Shown: positions 23,493 to 64,000, numbered from the stretch's first letter. The stretch is 64,000 nt of DNA from Candidatus Methylomirabilis tolerans (GCA_019912425.1 JAIOIU010000102.1:37655-101654), one strand, 5' to 3'. Translations and numbers: made by a program. Notes: generated from the letters alone by a model not told the origin.

Positions 23493-23506
23493 CCGGGAGA
23501 GAGCTG

Positions 23507-47836: not shown

Positions 47837-49099
47837 TCACACGTCGCTCGCCGAAGATGAGAGTGGATCGGTAAACAGCCGGACGGCAAGCGAAGAGTCG
47901 CGACCGTTTCCTGTTCCCTCGGCCAGCCAGGAGCGCAATGGGCCGTAGACGAGTCGCGTATAGAAGGCGAGACCCAGACGGCTCAGGAGGAGCACTGTCG
48001 AGACCGCCGTCCAGACGGTCACCGCCACTAAGCCCCAATCCGGCCGGCCAAGCGCCAAACTGCCGGTCAGCAGGAGCAGATTGGGATTGCGCCGGGCCAT
48101 CACCAGCCTGAAGTAGGAATCAAAGGGTCGCCAGCAGAAGATACTGTACCGGCCGAGCCAATATTCAAACGTGCCCTCAACAAGGCGCCCGACAATATAG
48201 CCGATAAAGATCACCCACATCGCGAGATCCAGCGTGAGCGACGGTATGCCTGGATAGAACGACTCCAACCCGCGACCCCACAATAGGTACCAAAATGGTG
48301 GATGTATCAAATCCATGATGTGGTCGAAAAAGTGACCGAATCGGGTTGACGTCACCGTGACCCGAGCGAGCTTTCCGTCTACCGTATCCAGGAAGGTCAT
48401 GCACCATGCGGCAAGAAGTCCCCACCCATACAGACCGTTCGCAAAAAGGGCGCCGGCTGCGCAAACCAGCAGTACGCTGATCGACGTGACATGATTCGGC
48501 CGTAAACCGAGGGTCACACACAGGCGCGTGGCCCATCGAGCCGGGACAGGCCAAAACCATTTTGTCACCAGGTCGGTCACGCCTTTATAGGAGTTGGAAA
48601 ATAATCGCTCCTCCAACGCCCGTTTTGTCTCGATCCTGATCGATGCCACAAACGGCGGTGCCGATTTCAGCAACGACTTATGAAACGAGGATACGCGGTC
48701 CTCAAGTCGTTCTACCCGGACGGATGGAAGGGTATTCACGCTCCTCTCTCCGGAAAGAAGAGCGCAGGCCTCTCTAACCAAATTAGCGGCTACGTGAGCC
48801 GCAACTACCCGTCGAGACGGCCCTTCCGGTACCTCAAGGATGATATTCAACGAGGCAGCCAGATCATGGAGGACCCGGCCATCGAAGAGGTAATCCCCGC
48901 GAACGATAAGCACGGAGTCACTTGGTTTCACTAAGGAAAGATCATCCGCAATAGCCGTAACCCCTGCCTGTCTCAGCACGCGTCGGTAGCGCTCGCGAGA
49001 CGATAGCCTCCACAGCGTAACCGGGGCTTCTCCAAGTATATGGGCGTAAACAGTCATTATTCTCAGTCGGCGCGCTTCCAGAAAGTCGGGCGGTGCCAC
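47837..49099 (-). CDS. CDP-alcohol phosphatidyltransferase-family membrane enzyme with a degenerate N-terminal nucleotidyltransferase-like domain
   Basis: 420 aa. The exact family motif D-x2-D-G-x2-A-R-x8-G-x3-D-x3-D is present in LDTVDGKLARVTVTSTRFGHFFDHIMD. Several TM segments. The ~150-aa soluble N-terminus lacks a clear GxGxR loop. Confidence 0.8.
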   Translation of the reverse strand: MAPPDFLEARRLRIMTVYAHILGEAPVTLWRLSSRERYRRVLRQAGVTAIADDLSLVKPSDSVLIVRGDYLFDGRVLHDLAASLNIILEVPEGPSRRVVAAHVAANLVREACALLSGERSVNTLPSVRVERLEDRVSSFHKSLLKSAPPFVASIRIETKRALEERLFSNSYKGVTDLVTKWFWPVPARWATRLCVTLGLRPNHVTSISVLLVCAAGALFANGLYGWGLLAAWCMTFLDTVDGKLARVTVTSTRFGHFFDHIMDLIHPPFWYLLWGRGLESFYPGIPSLTLDLAMWVIFIGYIVGRLVEGTFEYWLGRYSIFCWRPFDSYFRLVMARRNPNLLLLTGSLALGRPDWGLVAVTVWTAVSTVLLLSRLGLAFYTRLVYGPLRSWLAEGTGNGRDSSLAVRLFTDPLSSSASDV

Positions 49100-49199
49100 C
49101 CGGTAGTTGCCCGGTGGCCCAGCGAAATGTTCATAAAGCCGGATAGGAAACGACTAGGTATACTACTATACACAGGTCGACTTCGTCAAGATCGTGCGC

Positions 49200-50972
49200 T
49201 TACCCGGGATTACCCTTGTGCGTGATTGGAACACAACTCGGATCATAGTCATTCATGACCAAGGAAACCTCACCGTGTCGAATGCGGTAGACCCTGTCGG
49301 CGGACTCCACCATGACAGGTTGATGCGAAATGGCCAGAATCGTCAGCCGATCCAGAAGACCGCGTAACGTACGGCATATCTCAGCCGCATTTTCCGGATC
49401 GAGCGCGCTGGTCACTTCATCCAGGATCAACAGTTTGGGCCGATGCACCAGCGCCCTGGCAATCGCAATGCGTTGTCGCTGGCCTCCTGACAACATCGAA
49501 CCGCGTTCCCCAACCGAACTATAGATCCCGGATGGTCGTGCCACAACAAACTCCCAGGCGCCTGCAGCGCGCAATGCGGCTTCAGCATCAGCCTCGCTCA
49601 GATCCGGATCGCCAAGCGTCACATTCTGCAGCACTGTGTCATGGAACAGGAAGGTTTCTTGCGGCACATATCCGATCATCCTCCGCCACTGCCTCAGATC
49701 AACACTGTCCAATGACAGGTCGTCGATCCGGACATGACCTTGCTGTGGGCGCAGCAGACCCGTAAACAGATCCGCTATCGTTGTTTTCCCTGCCCCAGAT
49801 GGTCCCATAATAGCAGTAAACGACCCTACTGGAACGACCAGTGACGCATTCCACAGTACCCAGTGTTTTCCATATCCAAAGTTGACTTTATCAAGGCAAA
49901 GGGCCTTCTCCAGGTGAGGGGCCAGGCCTCCTGGCTCTGTTTCACGATCGCGGTTCGCGCTGTCAATGGCCGCTTGCAACGACCAGAAGGCACTTTCCAG
50001 GGTTCGCATTTTCTGGTATTGCCGCTGCATCTTAGCTAGACAGGTCAGCAATCGAGCAAGAAGGAACACCATAACCATCACGATATTGAACGGCATCTGC
50101 CACCGGCTAAGGGCCACATATAACCCGACAGCGATAAGGACGGCTAACAGAATCTCCTGGGAGGAGCTGAGCAGCTCGGTGCTGAGTACTTCACGCTGAA
50201 ACGCCAGGTTTAATCGCTTGGCGTTGGACTTGAGGGGAGGGCCGATCAACTCTTCACGCGCCATTGCCTTGAGGGGTTTGATGGATTGAAGGCTATCAGT
50301 CAGGCCGGCGAGAAGGGATTTTAATAAATGGGTTTGGCGGCTTCCAGCTCGATGCGCCATGCGGATGAAACGGTTGAGTCCATAGAAGATCACGATTCCG
50401 GGAACCAGGATTCCCAGGGTTGTCTTCCCCGCAACAACGAAGGCCACACATGCATACACAATCGCCTCGATAAACAGGGTCGTACTCTTGGCGCCCTCAA
50501 GATACCCCATTGAGGCTCGCATCGCTTCAGTGCCTACGGCATTAGCGAAGCTTCCGACAGGTTGGCGTACGTAATACTCCCACCGAGCGGCCAGCAGAGC
50601 TTGGAGCAGCGAGAGTCGCAGTTCAGTGGCAACGTGTGTAACCGTATAGCCGACCTGGGTTTTGGCCAATAGAAGAAATACCCCTTTAGCGACCACACAG
50701 AGGACAATCACGACCAACAATGTACCGACTGTCGGCCTGAGTCCGACGACTGAAAGGGCTTGCGTCAGGATACGCTGCGCGCCGGATGGGATCACACCGG
50801 TTCCAAAGGTCTTTTCACCGGTCGCCATGCTCAGCATCGGAAGCAGAAAGAGGAGGCCGACCCCCTCCGCGATGCTGGCGAACAGCAGGCAGATCAGCGT
50901 AAGCGCGCTCCGTCGCGGATACATCCGAATGATGGTGCTTAAAAATCGCATAGCGCCACCCGACGACTTCAA
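49200..50972 (-). CDS. ABC exporter, fused permease-ATPase (MsbA/lipid-flippase type architecture)
   Basis: 590 aa. Six-TM N-terminal half. GPSGAGKTT, LSGGQRQRIAIARAL, LILDEVTSALD. Confidence 0.85.
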   Translation of the reverse strand: MKSSGGAMRFLSTIIRMYPRRSALTLICLLFASIAEGVGLLFLLPMLSMATGEKTFGTGVIPSGAQRILTQALSVVGLRPTVGTLLVVIVLCVVAKGVFLLLAKTQVGYTVTHVATELRLSLLQALLAARWEYYVRQPVGSFANAVGTEAMRASMGYLEGAKSTTLFIEAIVYACVAFVVAGKTTLGILVPGIVIFYGLNRFIRMAHRAGSRQTHLLKSLLAGLTDSLQSIKPLKAMAREELIGPPLKSNAKRLNLAFQREVLSTELLSSSQEILLAVLIAVGLYVALSRWQMPFNIVMVMVFLLARLLTCLAKMQRQYQKMRTLESAFWSLQAAIDSANRDRETEPGGLAPHLEKALCLDKVNFGYGKHWVLWNASLVVPVGSFTAIMGPSGAGKTTIADLFTGLLRPQQGHVRIDDLSLDSVDLRQWRRMIGYVPQETFLFHDTVLQNVTLGDPDLSEADAEAALRAAGAWEFVVARPSGIYSSVGERGSMLSGGQRQRIAIARALVHRPKLLILDEVTSALDPENAAEICRTLRGLLDRLTILAISHQPVMVESADRVYRIRHGEVSLVMNDYDPSCVPITHKGNPG

Positions 50973-51174
50973 ATAGGGTTGATCGCAGAGCAGGAACCTT
51001 GACGATGCTGGGGAATTCCACGTACAACTCGGTACGCTGGCCGGCTCAGATTATCCCTAATGTCCAGGCCCGCACCATTTGAGCTGATATGAGGGTACCA
51101 ACACCCAAAACGGATCGATCTACAGTTATTCGGCTATCTCCAAAGACGGAGGTTATGGAGGTAGTCGGGTTGGT

Positions 51175-52533
51175 TTATGCGAGCCGGACCTCGAAGATGT
51201 CCTCGTGTCGGCGCCTTACTTCTACCGGGCGCAAAGCCCCGGTGATCCTCCGCAACCGCTCCGCTCGCTCCTGAAGGGCCGAGACTTCCAGGCGCGGGAA
51301 ACGCTGCCGATTGTACTCCACGCTATGGCGAGGGCTGCCGGAGCGCTGTTTCCGACGCCGTTTGATGCTTCGTACTTCGGCCTTGATTATGCCGGAGAGG
51401 CGTAGCGGGATACGGGTAAGACCCGCATAGGGGGAGCGGCGTGGGAGGAGCTTGATCAACCGAGCCGAGGCCAGCCCGTTGTCGAACCCATAGATGAAGC
51501 GGTCGACAAGACGGCGGCGGGCGCCGCCCGGATCGGGGTCGAAATCAGGGTTGCGGATGGCCGCGATGACCTCATCGGCAGTACGACACCGCGGACCCAG
51601 TTCATTGGGGAATCGGAGTTCATGGCGTGGGTCCTCGATGGGAGTATAGGGTATGATGCGCGTGCCGAGGAGAAAACCCTCTACCGCGGTTGTACACCCG
51701 CACTGGATCAGGCAATTGGACGCTATGAGCCAGGGCACCACGTTCCCCTCATGGCGAACGGAGACGTTTGGATACGTCGCGAGGAGCGTTCGCCAGAAGT
51801 CGTGGTTCTCGGCGGGGTGGGGCCTCAGCACGATCCGCCGGTCGGGGAACGCCCGCGCGACCGCCGGGATGAGGGCCTGGAAGGCCTCGAACACCACCCG
51901 CTTGTAGTGGAAGAGCCCGCGGGCGAACTCGTCCGGCATCCCGAGAGACCAATGTCCACGCACCCATTCTCCGTTCTTCATATATAGGAGGTTCAGGGTC
52001 TCGTGATAGCCGTTGACGTGGTTGAAGTTCGTATTGAAGAGGATAAAGTCGCCGAATTCCCGACGCAGTTCGTCCACCCGATCCTGAAAGAGTGTGCGCA
52101 TCTCCGGTCGCAGAATATCCGCTCGCGGGTTACCGAGGACTCGGACTGCCTCCCGTCGGCAAGCGGGATGGCCATAGAAGAGGTCGCGGTTATCCTCGCC
52201 CCACGCCACAAGCAGGTCGATCAGATCGAAGGCGTCCTTCGCAATGCGACGAGCGTAATAGATATCCGGCGCGTAGTGAGCGACCGCCTCCTCATCCCAT
52301 GCGATGATGTAGTGGCCAATCCGCCGTATGATGTGCAGCATCTTCATGCTGGGCTCCGTCAGCGACTTGGCGATGTAGAGACTCGGGGGGAAACGGCCAA
52401 TCCGTTCGTGGATGCGCCATTTGGCGCCGATGATGCTCGTCCAGCCCTCTTGAGCGGCGAGAACAGCTACAAGCAGCTTGGCATCCAGCTCGCGAACCTG
52501 GTTCTCGACCGGAATGATTAAGAGCGGCTTCAT
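51175..52533 (-). CDS. uncharacterised surface-carbohydrate biosynthesis protein, candidate glycosyltransferase
   Basis: 452 aa, soluble. MKPLLIIPVENQVRELDAKLL... Two Rossmann-like halves by hydrophobic pattern, basic C-terminal tail. From memory it resembles families found beside NeuB genes, but no catalytic motif could be verified by eye. Confidence 0.4.
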   Translation of the reverse strand: MKPLLIIPVENQVRELDAKLLVAVLAAQEGWTSIIGAKWRIHERIGRFPPSLYIAKSLTEPSMKMLHIIRRIGHYIIAWDEEAVAHYAPDIYYARRIAKDAFDLIDLLVAWGEDNRDLFYGHPACRREAVRVLGNPRADILRPEMRTLFQDRVDELRREFGDFILFNTNFNHVNGYHETLNLLYMKNGEWVRGHWSLGMPDEFARGLFHYKRVVFEAFQALIPAVARAFPDRRIVLRPHPAENHDFWRTLLATYPNVSVRHEGNVVPWLIASNCLIQCGCTTAVEGFLLGTRIIPYTPIEDPRHELRFPNELGPRCRTADEVIAAIRNPDFDPDPGGARRRLVDRFIYGFDNGLASARLIKLLPRRSPYAGLTRIPLRLSGIIKAEVRSIKRRRKQRSGSPRHSVEYNRQRFPRLEVSALQERAERLRRITGALRPVEVRRRHEDIFEVRLA

Positions 52534-52837
52534 CTGCCGGCTTCCCTCCCGATGGCCTTCTCCTTGTTCATTCGGAATAACTCCTCGGGCATATTACGGC
52601 TTGTCCGTTCAAGAACGCATTGTTCGGCCAATCCGAGCAACAGTACACTGATCTGGCTTAAGCAGACGCTAGATCGAAGCCGAACGCTTGAATGGCGACC
52701 CAACTTTCTTCTGAATACGCCGTATGCTTTACCGTTTCTACGGTCTGTTGCGTAAAATTAGGCATTGCGGCACCTACCATCTCAACGAAGTGGGATCCCT
52801 AATTCGTGATGCACAATCTTCATCAGATATAGAGCCA

Positions 52838-54784
52838 TTAGGGCCTATTGCAGCCTGAGGCGGAATCACGACTCTTTAATATCCTTGCGGCAAGGGAAGC
52901 GCCATCGAGTCCATGATATTTCAGCACCTCTGACGGTGTTCCCCATGCCGGGTATCCTTCAATGCCAAACTTTTGGAAATGCCGATTATCCATCACGTGA
53001 GAAGCCGTGAGTGTGTTGAGAAGTGTATCGCCCAATCCGCCCACAGGCGCATGATCTTCCAGTACAAACAGAGCACGACATGTATCGATAACCTCTTGTA
53101 ACCAGTCCGTGTGCACCCGGTTGATCCAGGGCATGTTGACCACTTTCAGGTGAAAGCCGCTCTCGCGTAAGATTTCGGCAGCCAATAATGCCTCATGAAG
53201 CATGATGGGTCCGTATGCGAACAGGACGGCATCGCGTCCATCCACCAGTGTGACGCCACGCCCAGGCTCTAGTCGGTAGCCTTGGGGCAATTCGATGATG
53301 CGTGGCGAGGGGCCGATGACAAGCCTCAATACGCAGCTTTCCTCTGCTTCTTTCACGCAATATTCAACCGCCATCCGTGTCTCCGCGGCATTGCAGGGCT
53401 GGATCACGACAAGGTTCGGTAGCGCCCCAACAAGGGAGATATCCCGGATGCTCTGGTGCGATTGGCCGGGTCCGGCAGGGATCAGGCCAGCGTAGTGGCA
53501 GACGTAGATAATCTTGGTCTGCTCGCACGCATTATTATAGATCTGCTCGTTGGCTCGCGAAGCCAAGAAGGCTGCAAAGGTGTTCACCACGGGCAGCAGT
53601 CCCTGGAGCGCCAGTCCGCCGGCCATCGACACCATATCCTGCTCGGCAATCCCATTCTCGATAAAGCGTTCGGGGTAGGTGAGCTCAAAGGCGCGAATGC
53701 GACAGTCGGCGGCCAGATCGGCATCCAACACCACGAGTTCCTCCCGTTCGGCGGCGATGTCCACGAGCGCCCGGCCAAAGGCGTCGGCGACGTATTCGCT
53801 AGACACGGCCTTAGCGCCCTTGTCTTCCTGGGTAAGCTCTTCCATTGCGAGCGGCAACAGCCCCAGTCTCTCCATGCGCGCCTGAATGCGCGTCACGATT
53901 TCCTGGTAGGCATCGGTAAAGGATCGATCATCCGGGGCGCCGGAATGCCAACGATAGAGCCCACCGCCGGTCTTCAGGGCCGTTGGGTGCTCCATAAACG
54001 ACACGCCGCGGCCCTTAATGGTATCGGCAATGAGGACCTTGGGCGTGTCGGTAATCGCCTTGAACTCAGCAAACACCTTCTCCAGTTGTCGAAAATCATG
54101 CCCATCGCAGCGAGCCACGTGCCATCCAAAAGTCCGCAACTTGGTTTCCAGATCGCCTAGATCGCAGATGTCACGGACGGGCTTATCCGACTGTACCTTG
54201 TTGTGATCGATGATCAGACTGATATTCGCGATTCGCTGATGAGCCGCCGCCTGTAACGCTTCGTAGACCTGACCCTCCTGCATTTCGCCGTCGCCGTTCA
54301 TCACGAACACGCGCCCCTGATGACATCTCAGGCGCTTCGCAAAGGCCATGCCCTTCGCCTTGGAGATGCCCATCCCCAGTGAGCCGGAGTTGGCCTCGAT
54401 ACCGGATGTGCTGACATCGGGATGTCCGCACGTTCCCTCCAGCCTTCTGAGTGTGGTGAACTGCTCCTTCGGAAGAATGCCCAAAGAAAACAGGATAGCG
54501 TACTGACCGGGCACATCATGGCCTTTCGAGGAGAAGTAGATATCACGATCGGGATGCTCGACGCCGACAGTGACGGTATTCATTTCCGCATAGTACAACC
54601 ACACAACAATGTCCATCGCGCTGAAGCTTGAGCCCAGGTGTCCGGAGCCGGCACGCTTGACGGAGGCCAGCGTGTTGGCCCGGCACATATCAGCGATCAG
54701 CGCAAGCCTGTCATATTGATCAATTGCGGCCGCACGGACGCGTTGAAACTCTTCCAACGGGATAAGCGTGACCATATGAAGCAT
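52838..54784 (-). CDS. transketolase-family ThDP enzyme (N- and C-terminal halves fused in one polypeptide)
   Basis: 648 aa. GSGHLGSSFS, NGDGEMQEGQVYEA ThDP-binding motif, a pyrimidine-binding half with FENGIAEQDM, and a C-terminal domain. Confidence 0.8.
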   Translation of the reverse strand: MLHMVTLIPLEEFQRVRAAAIDQYDRLALIADMCRANTLASVKRAGSGHLGSSFSAMDIVVWLYYAEMNTVTVGVEHPDRDIYFSSKGHDVPGQYAILFSLGILPKEQFTTLRRLEGTCGHPDVSTSGIEANSGSLGMGISKAKGMAFAKRLRCHQGRVFVMNGDGEMQEGQVYEALQAAAHQRIANISLIIDHNKVQSDKPVRDICDLGDLETKLRTFGWHVARCDGHDFRQLEKVFAEFKAITDTPKVLIADTIKGRGVSFMEHPTALKTGGGLYRWHSGAPDDRSFTDAYQEIVTRIQARMERLGLLPLAMEELTQEDKGAKAVSSEYVADAFGRALVDIAAEREELVVLDADLAADCRIRAFELTYPERFIENGIAEQDMVSMAGGLALQGLLPVVNTFAAFLASRANEQIYNNACEQTKIIYVCHYAGLIPAGPGQSHQSIRDISLVGALPNLVVIQPCNAAETRMAVEYCVKEAEESCVLRLVIGPSPRIIELPQGYRLEPGRGVTLVDGRDAVLFAYGPIMLHEALLAAEILRESGFHLKVVNMPWINRVHTDWLQEVIDTCRALFVLEDHAPVGGLGDTLLNTLTASHVMDNRHFQKFGIEGYPAWGTPSEVLKYHGLDGASLAARILKSRDSASGCNRP

Positions 54785-54805
54785 CAGAAGGACATTGGCA
54801 TAAAA

Positions 54806-55588
54806 TTATGCGAATATCCCATCATTCCTGAATTTCTCCATCAGTTTTTCAACAATAAAAAAATCAATAGGAGAATCGATATCAATAGCCCGCTCCTGGG
54901 GGATGATATGATATCGCACAAAATCTCCAGTAAGAGAAGCGGTCTCGTAAATGACATTCGTACGACAGGCTATGACATTCGAACGAAAGTAGGCTTTTTC
55001 ATAATGTTGCCTCGCAATCGGTGTGACCTCTCTACCGCTTTCCGTGAAGTATGTAACCAGGTGCTGACCGCCCTTTCCATCGTTAATCAGTTTCAGGGCT
55101 TTTAGTGGATGCTGGCGTGCTTCCGCAATCACCACAGCCGATTGTGCCAACGGATCTTTTAAGAGTTCTTCAATACAGGAGTCAATATCTTCCGGCATCT
55201 GCAGAGGAACCGTTGTCATCATACGTACGACGATATCCGGTTTATATTGTTCATACTCCATCAACCATTCCACCATATGCTTGACGTATTCCCATTCCGG
55301 TGAATGGTCGGCCGCAAGTTCCTTTGGGCGAAGATATGGGACGTCCGCGCCGTATCGTCGTGCAATTGCCGCGTACTCTTCCGAATCAGTGGATACTATG
55401 ACGCGGTTAACATACCTCGACGCCTTAGCCGTTTCAATGATCCAGGCTATCAATGGTTTTTCCATGAGTAAGCGGATGTTTTTATGGGGGACTCCTTTGG
55501 AGCCGGAACGGGCCCCAATAATGCCCAGAATCTTCAGATCCGGATATCTGTCTACACGCATGGGCGCAATCGCGTACCCGATGGCCAT
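54806..55588 (-). CDS. CMP-sugar-acid cytidylyltransferase (acylneuraminate/KDO cytidylyltransferase family, CTP_transf_3)
   Basis: 260 aa. GIIGARSGSKGVPHKNIRLL P-loop-like motif, VIVSTDSEEYAAIARRYGA, RPKELAADHSP. Confidence 0.8.
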   Translation of the reverse strand: MAIGYAIAPMRVDRYPDLKILGIIGARSGSKGVPHKNIRLLMEKPLIAWIIETAKASRYVNRVIVSTDSEEYAAIARRYGADVPYLRPKELAADHSPEWEYVKHMVEWLMEYEQYKPDIVVRMMTTVPLQMPEDIDSCIEELLKDPLAQSAVVIAEARQHPLKALKLINDGKGGQHLVTYFTESGREVTPIARQHYEKAYFRSNVIACRTNVIYETASLTGDFVRYHIIPQERAIDIDSPIDFFIVEKLMEKFRNDGIFA

Positions 55589-55613
55589 GCACCGGATAAC
55601 CCTTCTACACGTA

Positions 55614-57726: not shown

Positions 57727-57735
57727 CGACCCTTC

Positions 57736-59208
57736 CTACAGTTTGGTGGGGTCGGTGCTGATGTAGATATCTTTTAACTCTGAATAGACGTCCAACGCCT
57801 CTGTGCCGGGCTCGCGTGAGCCGTTTCCCGATTGCTTCAGACCGCCAAAAGGCATGTGGGGTTCGCTTCCATAGGTTCCGGCATTCACGATGGCCACCCC
57901 GGCCTGTACCTTTTGTGTGAACTGGATCGCTCGATGCAAGTTGCGGGTATGGATGCAGGCTGTCAGTCCATAGAGAGAATCGTTCGCGAGGGCCAGAGCC
58001 TCTGCGAAATCCTTGACGCGATACAGGCAGGCAATCGGACCAAACAACTCTGTTGATGAGATATCATCGTGTGCCCCCACATTCTCAATGATCGTGGGCG
58101 TCATGTAAAAGCCGTTGCGGTGTGGTAGATCGGTCAGCCTGTGCCCTCCGGCGAGAACGGCGGCGCCCTTCTGTCGCGCCCCTTCGATCGCATCGAGCAT
58201 ACGGGTGAGCTGCTTCTCGTTTATTACAGGACCAAGATCATCGTCATCGGTCGGTCCGACCTTGAGTTGCTTCGCGCCTGTTACGACCATGTCGCGAAAC
58301 CGGTCATAGACGGCGTCAAAGACGATGATCCGGCTCCCCGACGCGCAACGCTGTCCGGCATTGCTGAAGGCTGAAAGCAACGCCCACCTGGCCGCGTTCT
58401 CCAGATCGGCATCGTCGCACACGACGAACGGGTTCTTGCCGCCTAGTTCAAGTGATACCTTCGCCAAGCGCTCGCCCGCAACCCGCTGGATGGAGCGTCC
58501 GACCGCGGTCGAGCCGGTAAAACTGATCACCCCTACGTCAGGGTGTTCCACGAGCGGCGCGCCCGCTTCTTCTCCATACCCCTGGATGATATTGAGCAGA
58601 GCGGCAGGTAGACCCGCCTCCTGAGCGATGTGACCGACAATCCAGGCAGTCGCCGGCGTATCTTCTGCCGCTTTCAGTACAACGGCGTTACCGCAGATCA
58701 AGGCCGGAAAGATCTTCCAGGCTACATTGGCAATCGGAGTATTGGCAGGCACAATCAGACCGGCGATACCGATCGGCTGACGTATGGTCATGGCAGACCG
58801 ATCAGGAATCCCGCTGGTTGTCGTGCGACCATACAACCGCTGTCCCTCGCCGGCATAAAACAGCCCCAACGCAATCGCTCCACCAGTCTCGGCATACGCA
58901 TCTTTGTACGACTTGCCGGTCTCTAACGCGACGATTTGCGCAATCTCCCGCTGCCGCGCCTCCATTCCAAGGACGATTTTATGTAAGAGCATTCCACGCT
59001 GAACGGGCGGGGTATCCGCCCAGGAGGGTTGAGCCCGCTTGGCGGCTTTGACCGCCTGATGCACATCCTCAGCCAGTGACCGAGTTACGCGGCACGCCAC
59101 CCGACCATCGGCAGGATTCAGCTTGTCAAACCACTCACATGAGATGGCTGGACGCTGCCGTCCATCAATCCAGTTCGGGATCTCCGCTGGGAAGAGCCTT
59201 GTCCCCAT
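57736..59208 (-). CDS. NAD(P)-dependent aldehyde dehydrogenase
   Basis: 490 aa. FTGSTAVG, LELGGKNP, catalytic Cys region NAGQRCASGSRI, and the EEAFGP variant STELFGP. Confidence 0.88.
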   Translation of the reverse strand: MGTRLFPAEIPNWIDGRQRPAISCEWFDKLNPADGRVACRVTRSLAEDVHQAVKAAKRAQPSWADTPPVQRGMLLHKIVLGMEARQREIAQIVALETGKSYKDAYAETGGAIALGLFYAGEGQRLYGRTTTSGIPDRSAMTIRQPIGIAGLIVPANTPIANVAWKIFPALICGNAVVLKAAEDTPATAWIVGHIAQEAGLPAALLNIIQGYGEEAGAPLVEHPDVGVISFTGSTAVGRSIQRVAGERLAKVSLELGGKNPFVVCDDADLENAARWALLSAFSNAGQRCASGSRIIVFDAVYDRFRDMVVTGAKQLKVGPTDDDDLGPVINEKQLTRMLDAIEGARQKGAAVLAGGHRLTDLPHRNGFYMTPTIIENVGAHDDISSTELFGPIACLYRVKDFAEALALANDSLYGLTACIHTRNLHRAIQFTQKVQAGVAIVNAGTYGSEPHMPFGGLKQSGNGSREPGTEALDVYSELKDIYISTDPTKL

Positions 59209-59214
59209 TGTCGT

Positions 59215-60033
59215 TTACCAGGCCGTCCACCCGCCGTCAATAATGACGTTTGCTCCGGTCATATACGATGAGGCGTCAGAGACCAAAAAGGTGATGGCCC
59301 CGTTGTATTCATCCTCGTGCGCCATCCGCCCGAGCGGAACTCGCGCAGCATAGTTTGCGAGGAACTGTTCATTCTGGTTGTTAAACACCCCGCCGAGGGT
59401 AAGGGTATTGGCCCGTACGTTGTTGCCTGCCCAATATGTCGCAAGATAACGGGTCAGGTTGAGAAGCGCGGACTTGGAGGCAGAATAGGCCGCCGGCTTG
59501 ACAAACGGTGTTCCGCCTGCGCGGCGATATTCATAGATGCGCTGATCAGGGGCGACCATCCCATAGATGGAGCCGATGTTGATGATCGAGCCGCGGCCGG
59601 ATCCAGCCATCTGTCCTCCTACGACCTGGCAGCAGAGGAAGGCGCCTTTCACGCCGACCTCCATCACCTTGTCCCACGAGCTTTCCGGGTAGTGCTCAAA
59701 AGGTCCGTTTTCCTCTGCCGGCGCATTGGGTGGAGCATCAAGGGCCGCATTATTGATCAACGCATGGGGCACGCCCCACTTCGCATTGACCTGACTCAAA
59801 CCGGCCTCAATCGAGCGTCGTTGCGTGATATCCACTTGTACGAACATGAGGTTCTCGTCGTTGCGTCGCCCCGCAAACCGTTCGGTGACCCGTTGCTCGT
59901 CAACCTGGATATCGAAGATAGCGACCTTGGCTCCCCGATCCGCCAGCGCGAGGCTGAACCGGCGACCGAGCTGCCCAAGCCCGCCGGTGACAATGGCAAT
60001 CTTCTCCTGTACGCTAAAGAGGTCTTGAGCCAT
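59215..60033 (-). CDS. short-chain dehydrogenase/reductase
   Basis: 272 aa. VTGGLGQLG cofactor motif, NNAA, YSASKSAL catalytic Y-x3-K. Confidence 0.85.
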   Translation of the reverse strand: MAQDLFSVQEKIAIVTGGLGQLGRRFSLALADRGAKVAIFDIQVDEQRVTERFAGRRNDENLMFVQVDITQRRSIEAGLSQVNAKWGVPHALINNAALDAPPNAPAEENGPFEHYPESSWDKVMEVGVKGAFLCCQVVGGQMAGSGRGSIINIGSIYGMVAPDQRIYEYRRAGGTPFVKPAAYSASKSALLNLTRYLATYWAGNNVRANTLTLGGVFNNQNEQFLANYAARVPLGRMAHEDEYNGAITFLVSDASSYMTGANVIIDGGWTAW

Positions 60034-60041
60034 TCAAGCGG

Positions 60042-60569
60042 CTACTCCCGTTGCTGCGGCGCCAGAATACGCTCGAAGAGATCGCAGACCTCACGCACCG
60101 CTCCATGGCCGCCGCGCGCCTTCGTTTGATACAGGGCGTAGGGGAGCACATCCGGATGGGCGTCCTGGACGACAATGGGGAGCTTGACACACATCAGGCA
60201 TGGCATGTCATTGACGTCGTTACCGACGAACGCCGTTTGCGCCAGGGAGAGGCCCATCTCCTGGACGCGGGTTTCAAGCGCCGCGCGTTTATCTTTGCAT
60301 CCTTGAAGGCACTGAATGCCCAGCTTCCTGCCGCGAGCTGAGACAACCGGATTCGTCTCCGTCGAGACGATGAGCGTTGCAAGTCCAAGCCGTTCGAGCC
60401 GTTGCAGTCCCAGGCCGTCGCCACGAGAGCACCGTACCGCCTCGCGACCGTCTTCAAAGACGTACACCATGTTATCGGTGAACACCCCGTCGAAGTCAAA
60501 GACCACCAAGCGTATCTCACGGATGCGCTCCTCAAGGAAGCGGACCTTAGGCATTGTTGCGCTGTCCAT
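60042..60569 (-). CDS. HAD-superfamily KdsC-type phosphatase (ulosonate-phosphate phosphatase)
   Basis: 175 aa. LVVFDFDGVFTDN, ..GDGLG.., FVGNDVNDMP, typical of the KDO8P/KDN9P/Neu5Ac9P phosphatase family. Confidence 0.8.
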   Translation of the reverse strand: MDSATMPKVRFLEERIREIRLVVFDFDGVFTDNMVYVFEDGREAVRCSRGDGLGLQRLERLGLATLIVSTETNPVVSARGRKLGIQCLQGCKDKRAALETRVQEMGLSLAQTAFVGNDVNDMPCLMCVKLPIVVQDAHPDVLPYALYQTKARGGHGAVREVCDLFERILAPQQRE

Positions 60570-61630
60570 TACCCTTCAGCGCCTGTCAGGTCCTCGAACG
60601 AGATATTCTCGTCCGCATTCAGGCGGCGACGGAGCGCCTGTCCGATGACATGTTCGAGTTCGAAAGGCGGCACGCCGTCGCTCGGCGATTTGATGGCGAT
60701 ATCGTCCCGTGTCAAGACGTGGCCGGTCGGTAACTCATGGGCCGCGACAAGCTTCTTGCCCATCTTGAACAGCGGTTTGTCCTCGCCGGGAAGCGGCCGC
60801 TTTTTTCCGTCACCCAAGGCGGCGCGTACTCGATGTAGGTCCCGCACCAGCTTCTGTAGGCCGATCGGCTCCAGAGAGAAGGCGTGGTCTGTTCCCTTCC
60901 AGGCGCGATTCAGGGTGAAGTGCTTTTCGATGACCTGCGCGCCCAGGACATTCGCCATCAGGGCCATAGCGATCCCGTTTTGATGATCCGAGAGTCCGAT
61001 CACCACATCCGGGAATCGCTCGCGGTAGGTCATAATCACACGTAAGTTCATGTCTTGAGGCTCGACCGGGTAACTCGCCGTCGATTGCAGGAGACACAGT
61101 TGTGGGTTGATCGGCATAATCGTATCGTACGCGCGTTGTACATCCTCGATGGTGCCCCCACCAGTACTGACGATCATCGGCTTACCAATCCAGGCGACGT
61201 ATGTGAGGAACGGCGTATTCTTCAGATCCCCTGATGCAATCTTGAAGGCCGGCATATCGAGTTCTGCCAGAAAGTCGGCGCTCACGAAGTCGAAGGCCGT
61301 GGCAAACATCGTCACACGTAATTCGTTCGCATAGCGCTTCAGCTCACAATACTCCTCCCTCCCAAATTCCAACGCCTCGCGATGAGCGCCATACGTGGGA
61401 CCGAAGCTGTTCTCGTTGTTGTAGGGCATATCGTAGATTGCGCGTGTGTACAGCGAGCGATTATCACGTTTCTGTAGTTTGACGGCGTTCACGCCACACT
61501 GTTTGGCGACACGAAACATCTCCTTAGCCTGTTCCAGGCTACCCTGGTGATTGTGACCGATCTCAGCGATGACGTAGCAGTCGCTGTCGTCGTGAATATG
61601 ATCGGATCCGATAGTCAAATTCCGCGGCAT
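60569..61630 (-). CDS. NeuB-family sialic-acid-type (ulosonic acid) synthase with C-terminal SAF domain
   Basis: 353 aa. CYVIAEIGHNHQGSLEQAKEMFRVAKQCGVNAVKLQKR, ..SDHQNG.., EKHFTL, and a C-terminal SAF-like LTRDDIAIKSP. Confidence 0.88.
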   Translation of the reverse strand: MPRNLTIGSDHIHDDSDCYVIAEIGHNHQGSLEQAKEMFRVAKQCGVNAVKLQKRDNRSLYTRAIYDMPYNNENSFGPTYGAHREALEFGREEYCELKRYANELRVTMFATAFDFVSADFLAELDMPAFKIASGDLKNTPFLTYVAWIGKPMIVSTGGGTIEDVQRAYDTIMPINPQLCLLQSTASYPVEPQDMNLRVIMTYRERFPDVVIGLSDHQNGIAMALMANVLGAQVIEKHFTLNRAWKGTDHAFSLEPIGLQKLVRDLHRVRAALGDGKKRPLPGEDKPLFKMGKKLVAAHELPTGHVLTRDDIAIKSPSDGVPPFELEHVIGQALRRRLNADENISFEDLTGAEG

Positions 61631-61750: not shown

Positions 61751-62938
61751 TTACACGGAGGACGCTGTCTTGATGGACGCGAAGGCCTCACAGATACGGT
61801 TGATCTGGTCAGGGGTATGCGCCGCACTGACACTGCATCGGAGCAGGCTCCCCCCATCTGGGGCGGCCGGCGGCAAGATCATATTTACGTAAACGTCTTG
61901 GCGGAGAAGACCGTTCCAGAAGGCAATCGTATCTTCCGCCTGTTCGAACCGTACTGCTATGATCGGACTGGGTTCCGGGCTAAGCCTGAATCCTAACCCC
62001 TTTAACCAATCGAACAATCGTTGCGCATTCGTCCAGAGCTTCATACGCAGCTCAGGTTCTGTTTGGAGTCTTCGCAGAGCAACCCTCGTGGAAGCAATCA
62101 CTGAGGGACATGGGGATGCGGTGAAAATATACGGACGGCTCGCATACCTGATCAGTTCCATCACGGGATGATCCGAGACGCAGAATCCACCGGTAGCGCC
62201 AAGACTCTTGCTGAAGGTCCCGACGATAAAATCGACGCTACCCTCGACGCCGGCCTCTTCGGAGCGCCCGCGGCCCCGTTCCCCCAAGACTCCGAGCGAG
62301 TGAGCTTCGTCTACGAGCAGATAGGCGCCATGCTCCTGTTTCAAGGCTGCTATCTCCACCAGCGCTGCGCGATCCCCCAACATACTATAAATGCCTTCCG
62401 CGATGATCAGCGTATTAGGACAACGCTTCCCCAGACGTGTTAGACGCTTATGGAGGTCGGCCGTATCGTTGTGGCGAAACCGAATAATCTCAGCGCCGCT
62501 CATCCGGCAGCCATCATAGATACTCGCATGACAGTCGGCATCGATCAGGATCACGTCGCCATGGCCCGCGAGCGCCGAAATCACTCCAAGGTTAGCCAGA
62601 TAGCCGGTCGAAAAGACATCACACCATCGACGTCCATAAAATTCGGCCAGCTCTTGCTCTAACGCAAGGTGTCCACTAAAATTACCATTCGCCATTCTGG
62701 AACCGGTGGTACCGGTTCCTTGCTCCCGTACAGCGTTGACCGCGGCATCAATACACTCAGGGTCGAACGTTAATCCCAGGTAGTTATTCGTCCCTGCCAG
62801 GATCACCTGCCGGCCGTTCACGATAGCTTCAGTCGGCGACACAAGGCGCTCAATCGTCACACGAAAGGGATCCTCGCTTACCCGCGCTAACGACGTCCGG
62901 GCGTCAGCCAACTGTCTAAATTTCTTGAGAAGGGCCAT
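61751..62938 (-). CDS. alpha-oxoamine synthase, serine-palmitoyltransferase-like
   Basis: 395 aa. GTNNYLGLTFDP...GTGTTGSRMANG, STGYLANLG, RFRHND, PLP-lysine GTFSKSLG, RPYIFTAS, YVNMILPPAAPDGGSLLRCSVSAAHT. From memory this tracks bacterial SPT more closely than BioF or Kbl. Confidence 0.75.
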   Translation of the reverse strand: MALLKKFRQLADARTSLARVSEDPFRVTIERLVSPTEAIVNGRQVILAGTNNYLGLTFDPECIDAAVNAVREQGTGTTGSRMANGNFSGHLALEQELAEFYGRRWCDVFSTGYLANLGVISALAGHGDVILIDADCHASIYDGCRMSGAEIIRFRHNDTADLHKRLTRLGKRCPNTLIIAEGIYSMLGDRAALVEIAALKQEHGAYLLVDEAHSLGVLGERGRGRSEEAGVEGSVDFIVGTFSKSLGATGGFCVSDHPVMELIRYASRPYIFTASPCPSVIASTRVALRRLQTEPELRMKLWTNAQRLFDWLKGLGFRLSPEPSPIIAVRFEQAEDTIAFWNGLLRQDVYVNMILPPAAPDGGSLLRCSVSAAHTPDQINRICEAFASIKTASSV

Positions 62939-63186
62939 TACCTCGGCTCCAGGAGTTGCTCAATCTGCCTGGCGAAATCTCCAATAGTCCGTACGTCCGA
63001 GACGATGTTTAAAGGAATAGAAATGTCGAATCGTTCCTCTACCTCGAGCAATAGTTCCATGACCTTCAGCGAATCGAGATCGAGATCGGCGACGAGCTCT
63101 GTCTCTTCCGAAAGGGTCTGTCCGTTCTGCCCATGCGGTCGCAGGATTTCGTAGAGTTGCGGCAGTATTGCCTCGTAGTGAGCCAT
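62938..63186 (-). CDS. acyl carrier protein
   Basis: 82 aa. The phosphopantetheine site DLDLDSLKVMELLLEVEERF. The TAATG junction overlaps the SPT-like start. Confidence 0.85.
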   Translation of the reverse strand: MAHYEAILPQLYEILRPHGQNGQTLSEETELVADLDLDSLKVMELLLEVEERFDISIPLNIVSDVRTIGDFARQIEQLLEPR

Positions 63187-63236
63187 CTGTGAGTCAGCCT
63201 GACGTATATTGGGTTAGGCGGCCGCCCTTATCCTGG

Positions 63237-64000
63237 TCAGGGAAGGCCAAAAGTAAGTCGCAGACCTTCTTCCAAACGCACCTTTGGCGTCCAGCCGGAA
63301 ACCCGGGAGAACGGGATGCTGTCGCAGGTCCAGTCCGGATGTCTGAACTCCCGCACCTTCCCAGGGGTGAACATCGGCGCATATCCTATCATAGATGCGA
63401 CCATCTTGTTGAGCCACGCAATGATATTCATGATCAGCTCAGGCACCCGGAAAGAGAATACCCGTTTTCCCCGAAGTTGCTGGACGGTCTTGATGACCTC
63501 ATGCCAAGTATATCCCTTGGGATACCCATCATCCAACTCGAACGCGTGCTTCTCTCGGACATTGCCCTTCAGCCATTGTATCACGGCCTCCGCAAGGTCT
63601 TCTACGTAGAGTAAGGAGAATCTGGCGTCTTGTCTGCCTAGTATGGGAGCGATCCCATACAGCATCAGGCGAAGCAGGGGACGTATTGCGCGGTCCTCCG
63701 GGCCATAGACCACCGGGGGGCGAAGGGCGGTCCAGGGAAGATCGGCTACTGCGGCTACGGCAAGCTCCCCCAACCGCTTACTGGCTGCGTAGGGCGATAA
63801 TTCCGGCTCTCGAGCCGCCAACGATGATATTAAGAGAAACCGGGGTACGGGACTTCGGCCTGCGGTAATATGCGCCAACCGTGAGACCGCCTCAACATTT
63901 GTTCGATAAAAGTCGGCCTCGGTAATCCCCCGTACTACCCCTGCGCAGTGGATTACGGCATCCACTTCGTCCACCAGGCTTTCGAGACAATTGCGATCTT
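63237..64000 (-). CDS. NAD-dependent epimerase/dehydratase-family reductase (extended SDR), N-terminus beyond window
   Basis: Frame is open to base 64000 (..LESLVDEVDAVIHCAG). Catalytic YAASK. A long C-terminal substrate domain. Confidence 0.8.
   Translation of the reverse strand, partial: DRNCLESLVDEVDAVIHCAGVVRGITEADFYRTNVEAVSRLAHITAGRSPVPRFLLISSLAAREPELSPYAASKRLGELAVAAVADLPWTALRPPVVYGPEDRAIRPLLRLMLYGIAPILGRQDARFSLLYVEDLAEAVIQWLKGNVREKHAFELDDGYPKGYTWHEVIKTVQQLRGKRVFSFRVPELIMNIIAWLNKMVASMIGYAPMFTPGKVREFRHPDWTCDSIPFSRVSGWTPKVRLEEGLRLTFGLP

Follow-up and report, generated by a model that had tools for sequence, protein, structure and literature searches.

A described system with which the one considered here can be compared is the sphingolipid locus of Caulobacter. 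Its core genes run in the order ligase, reductase, acyl carrier protein (ACP), and spt, and its ceramide phosphoglycerate gene set comprises CpgA, CpgB, and CpgC together with a flippase candidate, CC_1166 (PMC11324152); PGAP-annotated E. coli shows the same succession of acyl-AMP ligase, reductase, ACP, and spt. For sphingolipids that carry sugars, PMC11762602 cites Jensen (1991) on an aminoglycosphingolipid from Chlorobium limicola. The window analyzed here, a 64,000-nt stretch of DNA from a Methylomirabilis-like (NC10) organism, ends in a block that we read, on balance and with modest confidence, as a sphingolipid locus into which a CMP-ulosonic-acid cassette has been inserted, the predicted product being an acidic glycosphingolipid. 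The locus thus points to an undescribed lipid of this kind in several phyla of environmental bacteria. The preliminary description had gone further, holding that such a lipid was not described for bacteria at all, which is too strong given the Chlorobium compound; it is the lipid of this particular locus that is undescribed in the literature, where we found no lipid chemistry for any carrier of a locus joining serine palmitoyltransferase (SPT) to the cassette.

From 47837 to the window end, the ORF listing gives 14 successive ORFs, all on the minus strand and with no credible plus-strand gene between them, just as first described, and the original domain naming of all 14 proteins was reproduced with Pfam and NCBIfam profiles (Table 1). 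Intergenic gaps are mostly 6-50 nt, the larger ones being 120 nt (SPT-NeuB), 304 nt (transketolase-Surf), 202 nt, and 100 nt. The TAATG stop/start junctions at 62938 (ACP/SPT) and 60569 (NeuB/phosphatase) are both real. The 23-nt overlap reported at 56521-56543, between the enolase-family and PanE-like genes, exists only with longest-ORF starts; the lengths of homologues (391 aa and 297 aa, respectively) place the starts near 57696 and 56507, probably the true ones, which leaves a 13-nt gap, the same as in metagenome contig L089.

Table 1. Features of the block, in order of transcription.
Feature	Position	Strand	Evidence
Epimerase-family reductase (CerR-type ceramide reductase, extended SDR)	63237 to >64000	-	Pfam Epimerase
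ACP (dedicated acyl carrier protein)	62938-63186	-	PP-binding, E = 7e-10
Serine palmitoyltransferase (SPT)	61751-62938	-	Aminotran_1_2; SPT equivalog NF047599
NeuB-family ulosonic-acid (phosphate) synthase	60569-61630	-	NeuB + SAF
KdsC-type (C0 HAD) sugar-acid phosphate phosphatase	60042-60569	-	KdsC-type HAD
Classical SDR oxidoreductase	59215-60033	-	adh_short_C2, 148.5 bits
Aldehyde dehydrogenase (ALDH)	57736-59208	-	Aldedh, 507.7 bits
Low-GC replacement cassette (enolase-superfamily, PanE-like, alternative cytidylyltransferase)	54785-57735	-	homology break + GC
Enolase-superfamily enzyme, acid-sugar dehydratase-like	56521-57726	-	MR_MLE_N + MR_MLE_C
Ketopantoate-reductase-family (PanE-like) oxidoreductase	55614-56543	-	ApbA + ApbA_C
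CMP-ulosonic-acid synthetase (cytidylyltransferase)	54806-55588	-	CTP_transf_3, 84.7 bits
Fused transketolase-family ThDP enzyme	52838-54784	-	three transketolase domains
"Surface carbohydrate biosynthesis protein" (Surf)	51175-52533	-	TIGR04396; no Pfam match
MsbA/HepA-like half-type ABC exporter	49200-50972	-	ABC_membrane + ABC_tran
CDP-alcohol phosphotransferase, CpgA-like	47837-49099	-	CDP-OH_P_transf

That the first triad is a bacterial ceramide core, as had been proposed, is borne out by an SPT equivalog match, the failure of the rival models, and a shared gene order. The oxoamine synthase scores 620.8 bits against NF047599 (cut-off 500) and falls below the cut-offs for BioF (335 versus 426), Kbl (307 versus 460), CqsA (200 versus 428), and ALAS; by these profile criteria it groups with neither BioF nor Kbl and is a true serine palmitoyltransferase. 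It has 520 relatives in GTDB genomes, and the ACP gene is kept in nearly all of the 80 SPT loci. A reductase gene adjoins ACP and SPT in the E. coli and Caulobacter loci as well (PMC11324152). The reductase ORF here is open to the window edge and matches Pfam Epimerase only over positions 64-227 of 240, so its N-terminus is cut by that edge, as the first account implied; it is 83% identical to a full-length 317-aa gene in loci L085 and L001. Relatives carry, just past the position equivalent to 64000, a ligase, a GNAT, a pair of nucleotidyltransferases, and an LptF/G paralogue; in L003 and L001, these are an acyl-AMP ligase (767 bits, cut-off 600), a 400-aa GNAT that is a candidate ceramide synthase, an NTP_transferase, an NTP_transf_3 protein, and LptF/G. 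The window stops short of both acyl-AMP ligase and ceramide synthase, and this was counted against the glycosphingolipid reading.

Judged by its recurrence across loci, the set of NeuB, KdsC-type phosphatase, SDR, ALDH, cytidylyltransferase, and transketolase genes is a conserved unit and a portable cassette, of which SDR, ALDH, and transketolase are core members. Among 41 full-range SPT loci (at least 9.5 kb downstream), a NeuB-type cassette adjoins SPT in 19, from Methylomirabilota and many Desulfobacterales, with the gene order kept and all genes co-directional; ALDH is retained in 17 of these 19, and transketolase identity across SPT-linked loci is 60-88%. A third, independent lineage is represented by two Planctomycetota-like loci, L081 and L095, in which a different NulO pathway (NeuC/NeuB/NeuA) lies beside a Cpg-type set. 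That set, which is complete, surrounds the Surf homologue with an exporter, a phosphoesterase, a CDP-alcohol transferase, two NTP transferases, a Tam41-like protein, LptF/G, and a DAGK kinase; the Surf homologue and the NTP_transf_3 gene ahead of it overlap. The two halves of the block, for which chance juxtaposition had been a worry, are therefore syntenic in relatives and across phyla, and in terms of gene order the adjacency is more than chance.

Adjacency could nevertheless arise from outer-membrane biogenesis co-regulation or a shared insertion hot-spot, with no covalent product. Two envelope pathways would then be merely co-located, one making ceramide or phosphoceramide and the other an ulosonic acid with which the TIGR04396 transferase decorates LPS, capsule, or glycoprotein. 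We consider this unlikely, though it is the alternative that survives best. The cassette also occurs at 75-80% identity in 3 polysaccharide loci (L092, L093, and L094) that carry Wzx, GT4, and KpsS-like genes and have no SPT; the SDR gene comes after NeuB/KdsC in polysaccharide loci as in SPT-linked ones, and the L092 transketolase is 77% identical. Hence the cassette is not intrinsically a lipid pathway, and ceramide as its acceptor is something we infer. TIGR04396 is, moreover, a general "surface carbohydrate" family whose relatives, where studied by experiment, act on glycans attached to protein (PMC5420450), and HldC, encoded at 45541-46047, shows that the organism encodes LPS heptose synthesis, making LPS an alternative acceptor. 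Gene content downstream of SPT-ABC varies among loci and this region takes foreign cassettes, although such variability is also what would be expected of a head-group cassette site. Against mere co-location, the adjacency is found in at least 2 phyla with order and strand kept, and in the window the cassette sits between SPT and the exporter. SPT loci lack accompanying Wzx/Wzy, polymerase, and initiating glycosyltransferase genes, and Pfam and NCBIfam profiles detected no Wzx/Wzy or other polysaccharide machinery in the window block. In L081 and L095, finally, there is an overlap between the transferase gene and one of the head-group genes, inside a Cpg-type operon.

For attachment of the sugar acid, the sole glycosyltransferase candidate in the block is Surf (TIGR04396, 326.6 bits, cut-off 125). 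It matches the BFO_1060 NulO-transferase family weakly and under cut-off (67.8 bits), has no predicted TM segment, and appears soluble. Its AF2 model (pLDDT 92) retrieves generic GT-B proteins with Foldseek (epimerases, GT4, and TagF, TM ~0.5), with no sialyltransferases among the matches. Its invariant motifs, WDEE (residues 79-82) and RPHPxE (237-242), resemble the acidic and HP motifs reported in bacterial sialyltransferases and T. forsythia NulO transferases (PMC5420450), and the combination of GT-B fold and such motifs makes it the strongest contender for the attachment step, as a putative CMP-ulosonic-acid transferase. Within the 41 full-range SPT loci, Surf and NeuB occur together in 11, Surf alone in none, NeuB alone in 8, and neither in 22 (Fisher p = 2e-5, for loci that are not phylogenetically independent), and the Surf gene abuts the sugar-acid cassette in every SPT locus that carries it. 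TIGR04396 homologues turn up in unrelated contexts too (L083).

The same protein might instead act not as a glycosyltransferase but as a phosphotransferase of the TagF type, drawing on a CDP-activated acid (CDP-glycerate, for example) to lengthen the ceramide phospho-head group and leaving the cassette with another transferase or target. Foldseek retrieves TagF at E ~1e-6, Surf follows two CpgD/CC_1153-type nucleotidyltransferase genes in L081 and L095, an ELM1-family protein beside NeuC/NeuB/NeuA in those loci could be the NulO transferase, and TagF-like logic for CDP-glycerate has been explicitly proposed in the Caulobacter literature (PMC12275187). We regard this as improbable, since in SPT loci Surf is never found without NeuB, even where both nucleotidyltransferases are present (e.g., L008, L015, L060, and L070), and always abuts the cassette. 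Its HP and acidic motifs suit CMP-sugar enzymes, and the relatives of its family include NulO transferases implicated by genetics (PMC5420450); T. forsythia transferase mutants accumulate CMP-sugar.

As to the sugar acid itself, NCBIfam gives an equivalog-level assignment for none of the 6 cassette enzymes. The NeuB-type synthase (Pfam NeuB, 248.6 bits, plus SAF) falls short of NeuB_NnaB (283 versus 400) and PseI (223 versus 340), its best PDB matches being SpsE, NmNeuB, and PseI at ~140-150 bits. The phosphatase matches KdsC PRK09484 (116.6 bits), TIGR01670 (96.6), and KDN-9-P phosphatase (82.6), all under cut-off. For the SDR, the best match is PRK09186 at 169 bits; for ALDH, it is alpha-ketoglutarate semialdehyde dehydrogenase (433 versus 770). 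The transketolase scores 393 against 488 for PRK05899.2-5 and is closest in the PDB to human-type and split transketolases (~217 bits). The KdsC-type phosphatase implies a sugar-phosphate substrate, as in Kdn/Kdo routes, and since amino-sugar enzymes are missing, a non-aminated Kdn/Kdo-like acid appears likelier than the sialic-acid-like head group first suggested. A ganglioside mimic bearing a genuine sialic acid (a 5-amino nonulosonic acid) would accord with the NeuB-family synthase and NeuA/PseF-like cytidylyltransferase, with NeuC/NeuB/NeuA in the Planctomycetota-like loci, and with the neuraminic acid that the Chlorobium sphingolipid is said to contain, but it is the most doubtful reading of all, because the NeuB_NnaB, PseI, and PseF cut-offs are all missed and the window cassette and its ~20 relatives have the KdsC-type phosphatase and no NeuC, aminotransferase, or N-acetyltransferase.

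The last three genes had been taken together as those needed to attach a head group and flip a lipid. Neither the exporter nor the CDP-alcohol transferase is peculiar to the sugar acid, since the former mostly occurs without NeuB and the latter within a Cpg-type set. The exporter reaches no equivalog (MsbA, 213 versus 602). In 44 of 70 loci it is the gene immediately after SPT, whether NeuB is present or not, and most of these loci have no NeuB; it is a candidate sphingolipid flippase by analogy with CC_1166, a potential flippase in the Caulobacter locus (PMC11324152). Matched by domain and neighborhood only, the pair look like counterparts of CC_1166 and CpgA. The CDP-alcohol transferase has a cytoplasmic N-terminal extension of ~190 aa, several TM-like segments, and an intact DxxDGxxAR...GxxxDxxxD motif at residue 238. 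It is 40% identical to the L081 and L095 genes, and along its whole length it shares 71% identity with a gene in L087 that is followed by a DAGK_cat kinase and a Tam41-like gene. Its gene travels with such partners, but neither the CpgB-like kinase nor the CpgC-like gene found behind it in L087 is present in the window, a point likewise counted against the glycosphingolipid reading.

Under the glycosphingolipid reading, the NeuB-type enzyme would carry out the condensation of PEP and a phosphorylated aldose, with the phosphatase then removing the phosphate. SDR and ALDH would oxidize the sugar, perhaps as far as a dicarboxylic acid, the transketolase might supply or lengthen the carbon chain, and the cytidylyltransferase would make the CMP-activated 3-deoxy-2-ulosonic acid. 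At the cytoplasmic face, Surf would transfer the sugar to one of two acceptors, either ceramide itself or a phospho-head group that the CpgA-like CDP-alcohol transferase would have made, after which the MsbA-like exporter would flip the lipid and LptF/G paralogues would hand it on to the outer membrane, where it could serve as an anionic lipid with an LPS-like role.

Part of the cassette has been exchanged in this organism. Homology to L001, L003, and L085 ends at the ALDH stop codon and restarts at the transketolase start codon; GC content in the stretch between is 0.49, compared with 0.57 on either side (GC3 0.49-0.53 compared with 0.61-0.74). Its enolase-family and PanE-like genes are found in none of the 80 genome loci with SPT, and the replacement is seen, in the same arrangement, only in the window and L089. 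On this homology break, the trio is a strain-level swap for the single cytidylyltransferase gene of relatives, to which the window's cytidylyltransferase is 31-33% identical (L001, L003, and L085; PseF 122, cut-off 205.7; PDB NeuA 9ftb, 99 bits). The enolase-family protein matches PDB 2oo6 at 387 bits and has 391-aa homologues at 65-98% identity in many phyla, and the PanE-like protein exceeds the TIGR00745 subfamily cut-off (158.8 versus 141). The exchange probably changes the sugar acid in this strain. The PanE-like gene always adjoins the enolase-family gene (L089 and L091), and in L091, a NulO-rich glycan locus, the two are paired with CTP_transf_3.

That the locus encodes sphingolipid synthesis can be stated with high confidence. 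Its oxoamine synthase exceeds the cut-off of NF047599, the NCBIfam equivalog model for serine palmitoyltransferase (SPT; 620.8 bits against 500), and falls below those of the rival families BioF (335 < 426), Kbl (307 < 460) and CqsA (200 < 428), with ALAS failing as well; it is thus an SPT, and not one of the BioF or Kbl enzymes with which, as the preliminary description had allowed, it might have grouped. The protein shares 90% identity with the SPT of a Candidatus Methylomirabilis MAG and 80-83% with those of other Methylomirabilota, a group with which the window's GC content (0.59) also agrees. In a contig labelled “Patescibacteria group bacterium” (DATMXF010000092.1) the SPT locus matches that of the window at 83% identity and has Methylomirabilis-like neighbours; the contig is probably mis-binned. 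In the Pfam scan a PP-binding ACP and an Epimerase-family reductase adjoin spt, and the order reductase-ACP-SPT is nearly universal among the 80 SPT loci of our synteny survey (tblastn and protein clustering on GTDB genomes, Chlorobi not among them). The reductase, first gene of the locus, is cut by the window edge, its ORF being open through 63998 and its match covering only positions 64-227 of the Epimerase profile. The content beyond position 64000 is deduced from three relatives (L001, L003 and L085), in which the genes immediately upstream of the reductase encode an acyl-AMP ligase for fatty acids (767 > 600 bits), a ceramide synthase candidate of the GNAT type (400 aa), NTP_transferase and NTP_transf_3 proteins and an LptF/G permease. 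Searches of the 64-kb window for a ceramide kinase, a CpgC-like gene, cerS, the ligase, LptF/G, nucleotidyltransferases, a desaturase and DUF2141 found none of them. The arrangement of ligase, reductase, ACP and spt matches the published Caulobacter locus (PMC11324152). It recurs in some PGAP-annotated E. coli genomes (NZ_CP028192.1, 1229261-1257961), where ligase, epimerase-family reductase, ACP and spt are followed by lptG and lptF paralogues, in a locus that also holds yghO, lies between glcC and yghR, and is without ABC exporter, CDP-alcohol transferase or NeuB cassette.

Fourteen successive ORFs, all on the minus strand, run from 47837 to the window end, and the domain calls made for them from the bare sequence were reproduced in every case by Pfam and NCBIfam scans. 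The stop/start overlaps at 62938 and 60569 are likewise real, each a TAATG. The 23-nt overlap reported at 56521-56543 proved to be an artefact of choosing the longest ORF: judged by the lengths of their homologues (391 and 297 aa), the enolase-family and PanE-like genes are separated instead by a 13-nt spacer, which is also found in metagenome contig L089. Intergenic gaps are mostly 6-50 nt, with wider ones before NeuB (120 nt), before the gene for the TIGR04396 “surface carbohydrate biosynthesis protein” (here Surf; 304 nt), before the ABC exporter (202 nt) and before the CDP-alcohol transferase (100 nt). A scan of 45-64 kb for consensus promoters and terminators gave counts not above those of shuffled sequence (13 vs 11.1; 17 vs 13.8) and holds no information on operon boundaries. 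The non-coding gap between transketolase (TK) and Surf is specific to the window: the two genes abut in L003, L087 and L089, and in L085 a TylF-type methyltransferase occupies the interval. A decayed TylF methyltransferase was sought in the window's gap, and no remnant was found there.

Coordinates of features in the window, in the order in which they lie
Feature	Positions	Orientation and place	Remark
Kdp potassium-uptake operon	21687-29659		KdpA, KdpB, KdpD, KdpE
HldC (ADP-heptose, LPS heptose synthesis)	45541-46047 (longest ORF to 46221)	co-directional with the locus	rfaE domain II, 194.8 > 181.5
OmpA-family protein	46442-47176	co-directional, downstream of the locus	
Lipoprotein-like ORF	47211-47567	co-directional, downstream of the locus	118 aa
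Surf	51175-52533	minus	candidate transferase
TK-Surf gap	52534-52837		non-coding, 304 nt
Swapped segment	54785-57735	minus	enolase-superfamily, PanE-like and cytidylyltransferase genes
SPT	61751-62938	minus	

The preliminary description had joined a lipid half and a sugar-acid half into one locus, with chance adjacency as the alternative. In relatives the two halves are syntenic: among the 41 SPT loci with at least 9.5 kb of downstream sequence, a cassette of NeuB, (KdsC-type phosphatase), SDR, ALDH, cytidylyltransferase, transketolase and TIGR04396 protein adjoins SPT in 19, which belong to Methylomirabilota and to many Desulfobacterales, and its order and strand are conserved. In Desulfobacterales it comes after the exporter, in Methylomirabilis before it. 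The comparative gene order thus argues, with high confidence, for a non-random association of the cassette with the sphingolipid locus. In 44 of 70 loci SPT is immediately followed by an MsbA-like exporter; the slot downstream of SPT and exporter otherwise varies between loci, as would be expected of a site for head-group cassettes. In some Desulfobacterales (L030, L040, L050; L029, L031, L063) a PLD-like protein (PLDc_2) or a GT4 glycosyltransferase stands beside the TIGR04396 gene, which suggests further head-group variants. In L087, a Methylomirabilis-related contig, a Gly_transf_sug gene (PF04488, a family that includes eukaryotic sphingolipid glycosyltransferases) and a GT1-family gene precede NeuB at 567-2755, where the window has SPT. 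In L085 (13459-15220) and L087 (18010-20649) the exporter or the CDP-alcohol transferase is followed by genes for a fatty-acid desaturase and a DUF2141 protein; the window is without both, and their products may act on the sphingoid chain or the acyl chain.

The most serious challenge to a lipid acceptor comes from the cassette itself. Close homologues of the window's NeuB, SDR, ALDH and TK (75-80% identity) are found in ordinary polysaccharide loci without SPT (L092, L093 and L094), where their neighbours include Wzx, GT4 and dTDP-sugar genes and a KpsS-like protein. This makes the cassette a general source of a CMP-ulosonic acid, co-opted by sphingolipid loci, and it is mainly because the cassette also serves ordinary polysaccharide loci that the lipid acceptor has to be deduced. 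Attachment of the sugar acid to the sphingolipid is nonetheless the reading we favor, with moderate confidence and a probability a little above even.

The preliminary description had proposed a sialic-acid-like head group, and here the evidence points elsewhere. The NeuB-family synthase, at 60569-61630, is clear at the domain level (PF03102, 248.6 bits; SAF domain PF08666, 32.8 bits), and it falls below the cut-offs that would make it specific (NeuB_NnaB, 283 < 399.65; PseI, 222.6 < 340), as do the phosphatase (KdsC, 116.6 < 208; KDN-9-P phosphatase, 82.6 < 180) and the cytidylyltransferase (PseF, 122 < 205.7; KdsB, 28.7 < 155). Synthesis of sialic, pseudaminic or legionaminic acid requires NeuC, PseB,C,H,G or LegB,C,H,G, respectively, and none of these was found, either among the 14 genes or in the relatives' SPT-linked cassettes; of the loci examined, only the Planctomycetota-like L081 and L095 have Epimerase_2 (NeuC). 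Since genes for NeuC, aminotransferase and acetyltransferase are absent and a KdsC-type phosphatase is present, the gene content speaks for a Kdn/Kdo-like acid that is non-aminated and has a sugar phosphate as its precursor, and a true sialic acid is retained with low confidence only. The cassette resembles Kdn and Kdo routes (for instance, the KDN-9-P synthase and phosphatase of Bacteroides thetaiotaomicron) in its NeuB-family synthase, KdsC-family phosphatase and CTP_transf_3 enzyme, and neither involves amino-sugar enzymes. Unlike those routes, however, it always comes with an SDR and a transketolase and usually with an ALDH, none of which takes part in the Kdn and Kdo pathways known to us. 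One may speculate that these three enzymes oxidize the sugar, perhaps to an ulosaric acid, or alter its chain length. A literature search found no paper describing a cassette of this composition.

The candidate for attaching the sugar acid is Surf, which is a full member of TIGR04396 (326.6 bits > 125) and gives no Pfam hit even at E <= 10. Against the BFO_1060 family model NF046086 it scores 67.8 bits (E = 9e-19), below the cut-off of 200. Because a sequence search of the PDB gave nothing above noise, its structure was predicted: the AlphaFold (AF2) model, built from 57 homologues (pLDDT 92, pTM 0.90), is a GT-B fold of two Rossmann domains, which Foldseek matches at probability 1.00 to GT4 HepE, UDP-GlcNAc 2-epimerases and TagF, with TM 0.4-0.55, all generic PDB matches. 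Two stretches are invariant in the 57 sequences, W79-D80-E81-E82 (followed by A, not G) and R237-P238-H239-P240-x-E242, and in sequence they look similar to the acidic and HP motifs known from sialyltransferases of bacteria. Of the 41 SPT loci, 11 have both Surf and NeuB, none has Surf only, 8 (mostly cut by the locus end) have NeuB only and 22 have neither, a co-occurrence with Fisher p = 2e-5 on loci that are not independent. Moreover, in L081 and L095 the Surf homologue overlaps a preceding NTP_transf_3 gene inside a complete Cpg-type set, as the head-group genes of Caulobacter are called, and NeuC/NeuB/NeuA lie a few kilobases away; the two loci represent a third lineage, with another sugar-acid pathway and the same association of Surf with sphingolipid genes.

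Two transferase groups offer comparisons. KpsS and KpsC, the beta-Kdo transferases responsible for the Kdo-lipid anchor in group 2 capsules, use a CMP-activated ulosonic acid as donor and lyso-phosphatidylglycerol, a membrane lipid whose head is a phospho-polyol, as acceptor. In polysaccharide locus L092 the same cassette has a KpsS-like Capsule_synth protein as its neighbour, and this protein aligns weakly with Surf across the HP-motif region (profile-profile probability 34%); Surf, however, has no Capsule_synth Pfam hit, and its proposed acceptor is a sphingolipid rather than lyso-phosphatidylglycerol. The second group comprises the Tannerella forsythia members of the BFO_1060 family, genetically implicated as pseudaminic and legionaminic acid transferases (PMC5420450). 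Surf is like Tanf_01245, TFUB4_00887 and BFO_1060 in length (about 445-450 aa), in a predicted GT-B/TagB-type fold and in lying immediately beside a CMP-nonulosonic acid biosynthesis locus, and its acidic and HP stretches may correspond to the motifs of those proteins, but the Tannerella acceptor is a protein-bound glycan (PMC5420450) and that proposed for Surf a lipid.

The remaining lipid genes have a known counterpart in the Caulobacter crescentus locus CC_1152-CC_1168, which leads to ceramide diphosphoglycerate, CPG2 (PMC11324152, PMC12275187, bioRxiv 10.64898/2026.04.12.717747). The window and its relatives have in common with it the acyl-AMP ligase, reductase, ACP, SPT and ceramide synthase and, at the domain level, a CDP-alcohol transferase (CpgA), a DAGK-type kinase (CpgB), a putative NDP-ceramide former (CpgC), two nucleotidyltransferases (CpgD, CC_1153), a phosphoesterase (CC_1158), a putative flippase (CC_1166) and LptF2/G2. 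The ceramide core, CDP-alcohol transferase, exporter and Lpt paralogues are thus new members of a known system, and an anionic head group with LPS-like export is a logic common to the Caulobacter locus and the lipid proposed here. The likeness of the window's ABC exporter to CC_1166, itself only a candidate for the Caulobacter sphingolipid flippase, and of its CDP-alcohol transferase to CC_1159 (CpgA) is one of domain descriptions (PMC11324152) and neighbourhood. The window differs in having both a NeuB-type cassette and a TIGR04396 protein, neither of which is described for the Caulobacter locus (PMC11324152, PMC12275187, bioRxiv 10.64898/2026.04.12.717747), and in being without the kinase and the CpgC-like gene: a tblastn search of the 64 kb with L071 and L087 representatives gave no match to a DAGK_cat ceramide kinase (CpgB) or to a Tam41-like/CpgC-like gene. 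Both may lie elsewhere in the genome.

The CDP-alcohol transferase (PF01066) has TM-like segments and an intact motif, DTVDGKLAR...G...D...D, at residue 238. In L043, L049, L055, L071, L078, L087, L081 and L095 it adjoins SPT together with a DAGK_cat kinase and a Tam41-like gene, the latter a weak match to Tam41, the mitochondrial CDP-DAG synthase family. By analogy with CDP-diacylglycerol, these are the genes to be expected of a CDP-ceramide route, and they agree with the NDP-ceramide proposal made for CC_1161 of Caulobacter. Because it travels with the kinase and the Tam41-like protein, the CDP-alcohol transferase belongs to the Caulobacter-type set and not to the sugar-acid module.

Taken as a whole, the reading would be of an unrecognized class of bacterial “ganglioside-like” lipids, and in this full form it is tentative, with a chance somewhat short of even. 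Ceramides or ceramide phosphoglycerates would be capped by a CMP-derived ulosonic acid, oxidized or modified in chain length, that the TIGR04396 GT-B transferase attaches, and a dedicated MsbA-like flippase and LptF/G paralogues would carry the product, an anionic lipid comparable to LPS, to the outer membrane. Uncultured anaerobes of the Methylomirabilota, Desulfobacterota and Planctomycetota would widely possess the trait, which would have arisen through repeated capture of different cassettes, either Kdn/Kdo-like with transketolase, SDR and ALDH, or NeuC/NeuB/NeuA. If this is true, a head group derived from a CMP-ulosonic acid would have its parallels both in the gangliosides of eukaryotes and in the Kdo-lipid A core of LPS; a function would be assigned to the large TIGR04396 family; the MsbA-like exporter beside SPT would be nominated as sphingolipid flippase; the widespread cassette would be flagged as an uncharacterized sugar-acid pathway; and there would be a lipid-biomarker prediction for nitrite-dependent methane oxidizers and sulfate reducers.

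The genetics of bacterial sphingolipids has been worked out only recently, and few head groups are known: hexoses, uronic acids, phosphoglycerate, phosphoethanolamine and inositol phosphate. Sphingomonas GSL-1, a glucuronosyl-ceramide, is a uronic-acid glycosphingolipid that serves in place of LPS, and the aminoglycosphingolipid of Chlorobium limicola, to which, to our knowledge, no genes have been assigned, is said to contain neuraminic acid; if it does, it is a direct chemical precedent. Both are like the proposed lipid in being ceramides with an acidic sugar in a Gram-negative envelope, but the uronic acids of Sphingomonas derive from UDP-sugars, whereas the proposed lipid would use a CMP-ulosonic route. 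The claim that such a lipid is undescribed for bacteria therefore has to be divided. For the genes, no description of an ulosonic-acid cassette and TIGR04396 transferase within sphingolipid loci was found in the literature searched, and searches for a link of NeuB or nonulosonic acids to bacterial SPT loci, and for Methylomirabilis sphingolipids, returned nothing relevant. For the chemistry it goes too far, given the Sphingomonas and Chlorobium precedents. A survey of Black Sea sphingolipids lists no sugar-acid head group (PMC11334938), and the Chlorobium lipid (Jensen 1991) is cited in PMC11762602.

Within the cassette the window carries a strain-level swap, in which enolase-superfamily, PanE-like and cytidylyltransferase genes take the place of the single cytidylyltransferase of relatives. 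Its limits are exact, the stop codon of ALDH at one end and the start codon of the transketolase at the other, and its GC is 0.49 against 0.57 in the flanks (GC3 0.49-0.53 against 0.61-0.74). L089 has the same arrangement, and in L091, a glycan locus rich in nonulosonic acid genes, the enolase/PanE pair stands beside CTP_transf_3 genes. The best structural relative of the enolase-family enzyme is PDB 2oo6, itself without an assigned function. Homologues of the window's enzyme that are annotated from Patescibacteria/CPR and many other phyla (P0129, P0150, P0151, P0198, P0226) are 65-76% identical to it, an unusually high conservation that suggests frequent horizontal transfer of this glycan sub-cassette.

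Downstream of 47837 the same strand continues with the 118-aa ORF, the OmpA-family gene, HldC, Mfd and SurA, none of which has any link to the locus in relatives. The cytidylyltransferase-like gene now identified as HldC was considered as a supplier of CDP-alcohol to the CDP-alcohol transferase and was rejected, since it scores above the NCBIfam cut-off for HldC. Its presence directly downstream makes it probable, as far as genes can tell, that the organism makes heptose-containing LPS besides any sphingolipid. The remaining window is housekeeping, with the Kdp operon, helicases and cell-division genes; the Kdp genes lie in a stretch of higher GC (0.64-0.65) than the window as a whole (0.59).
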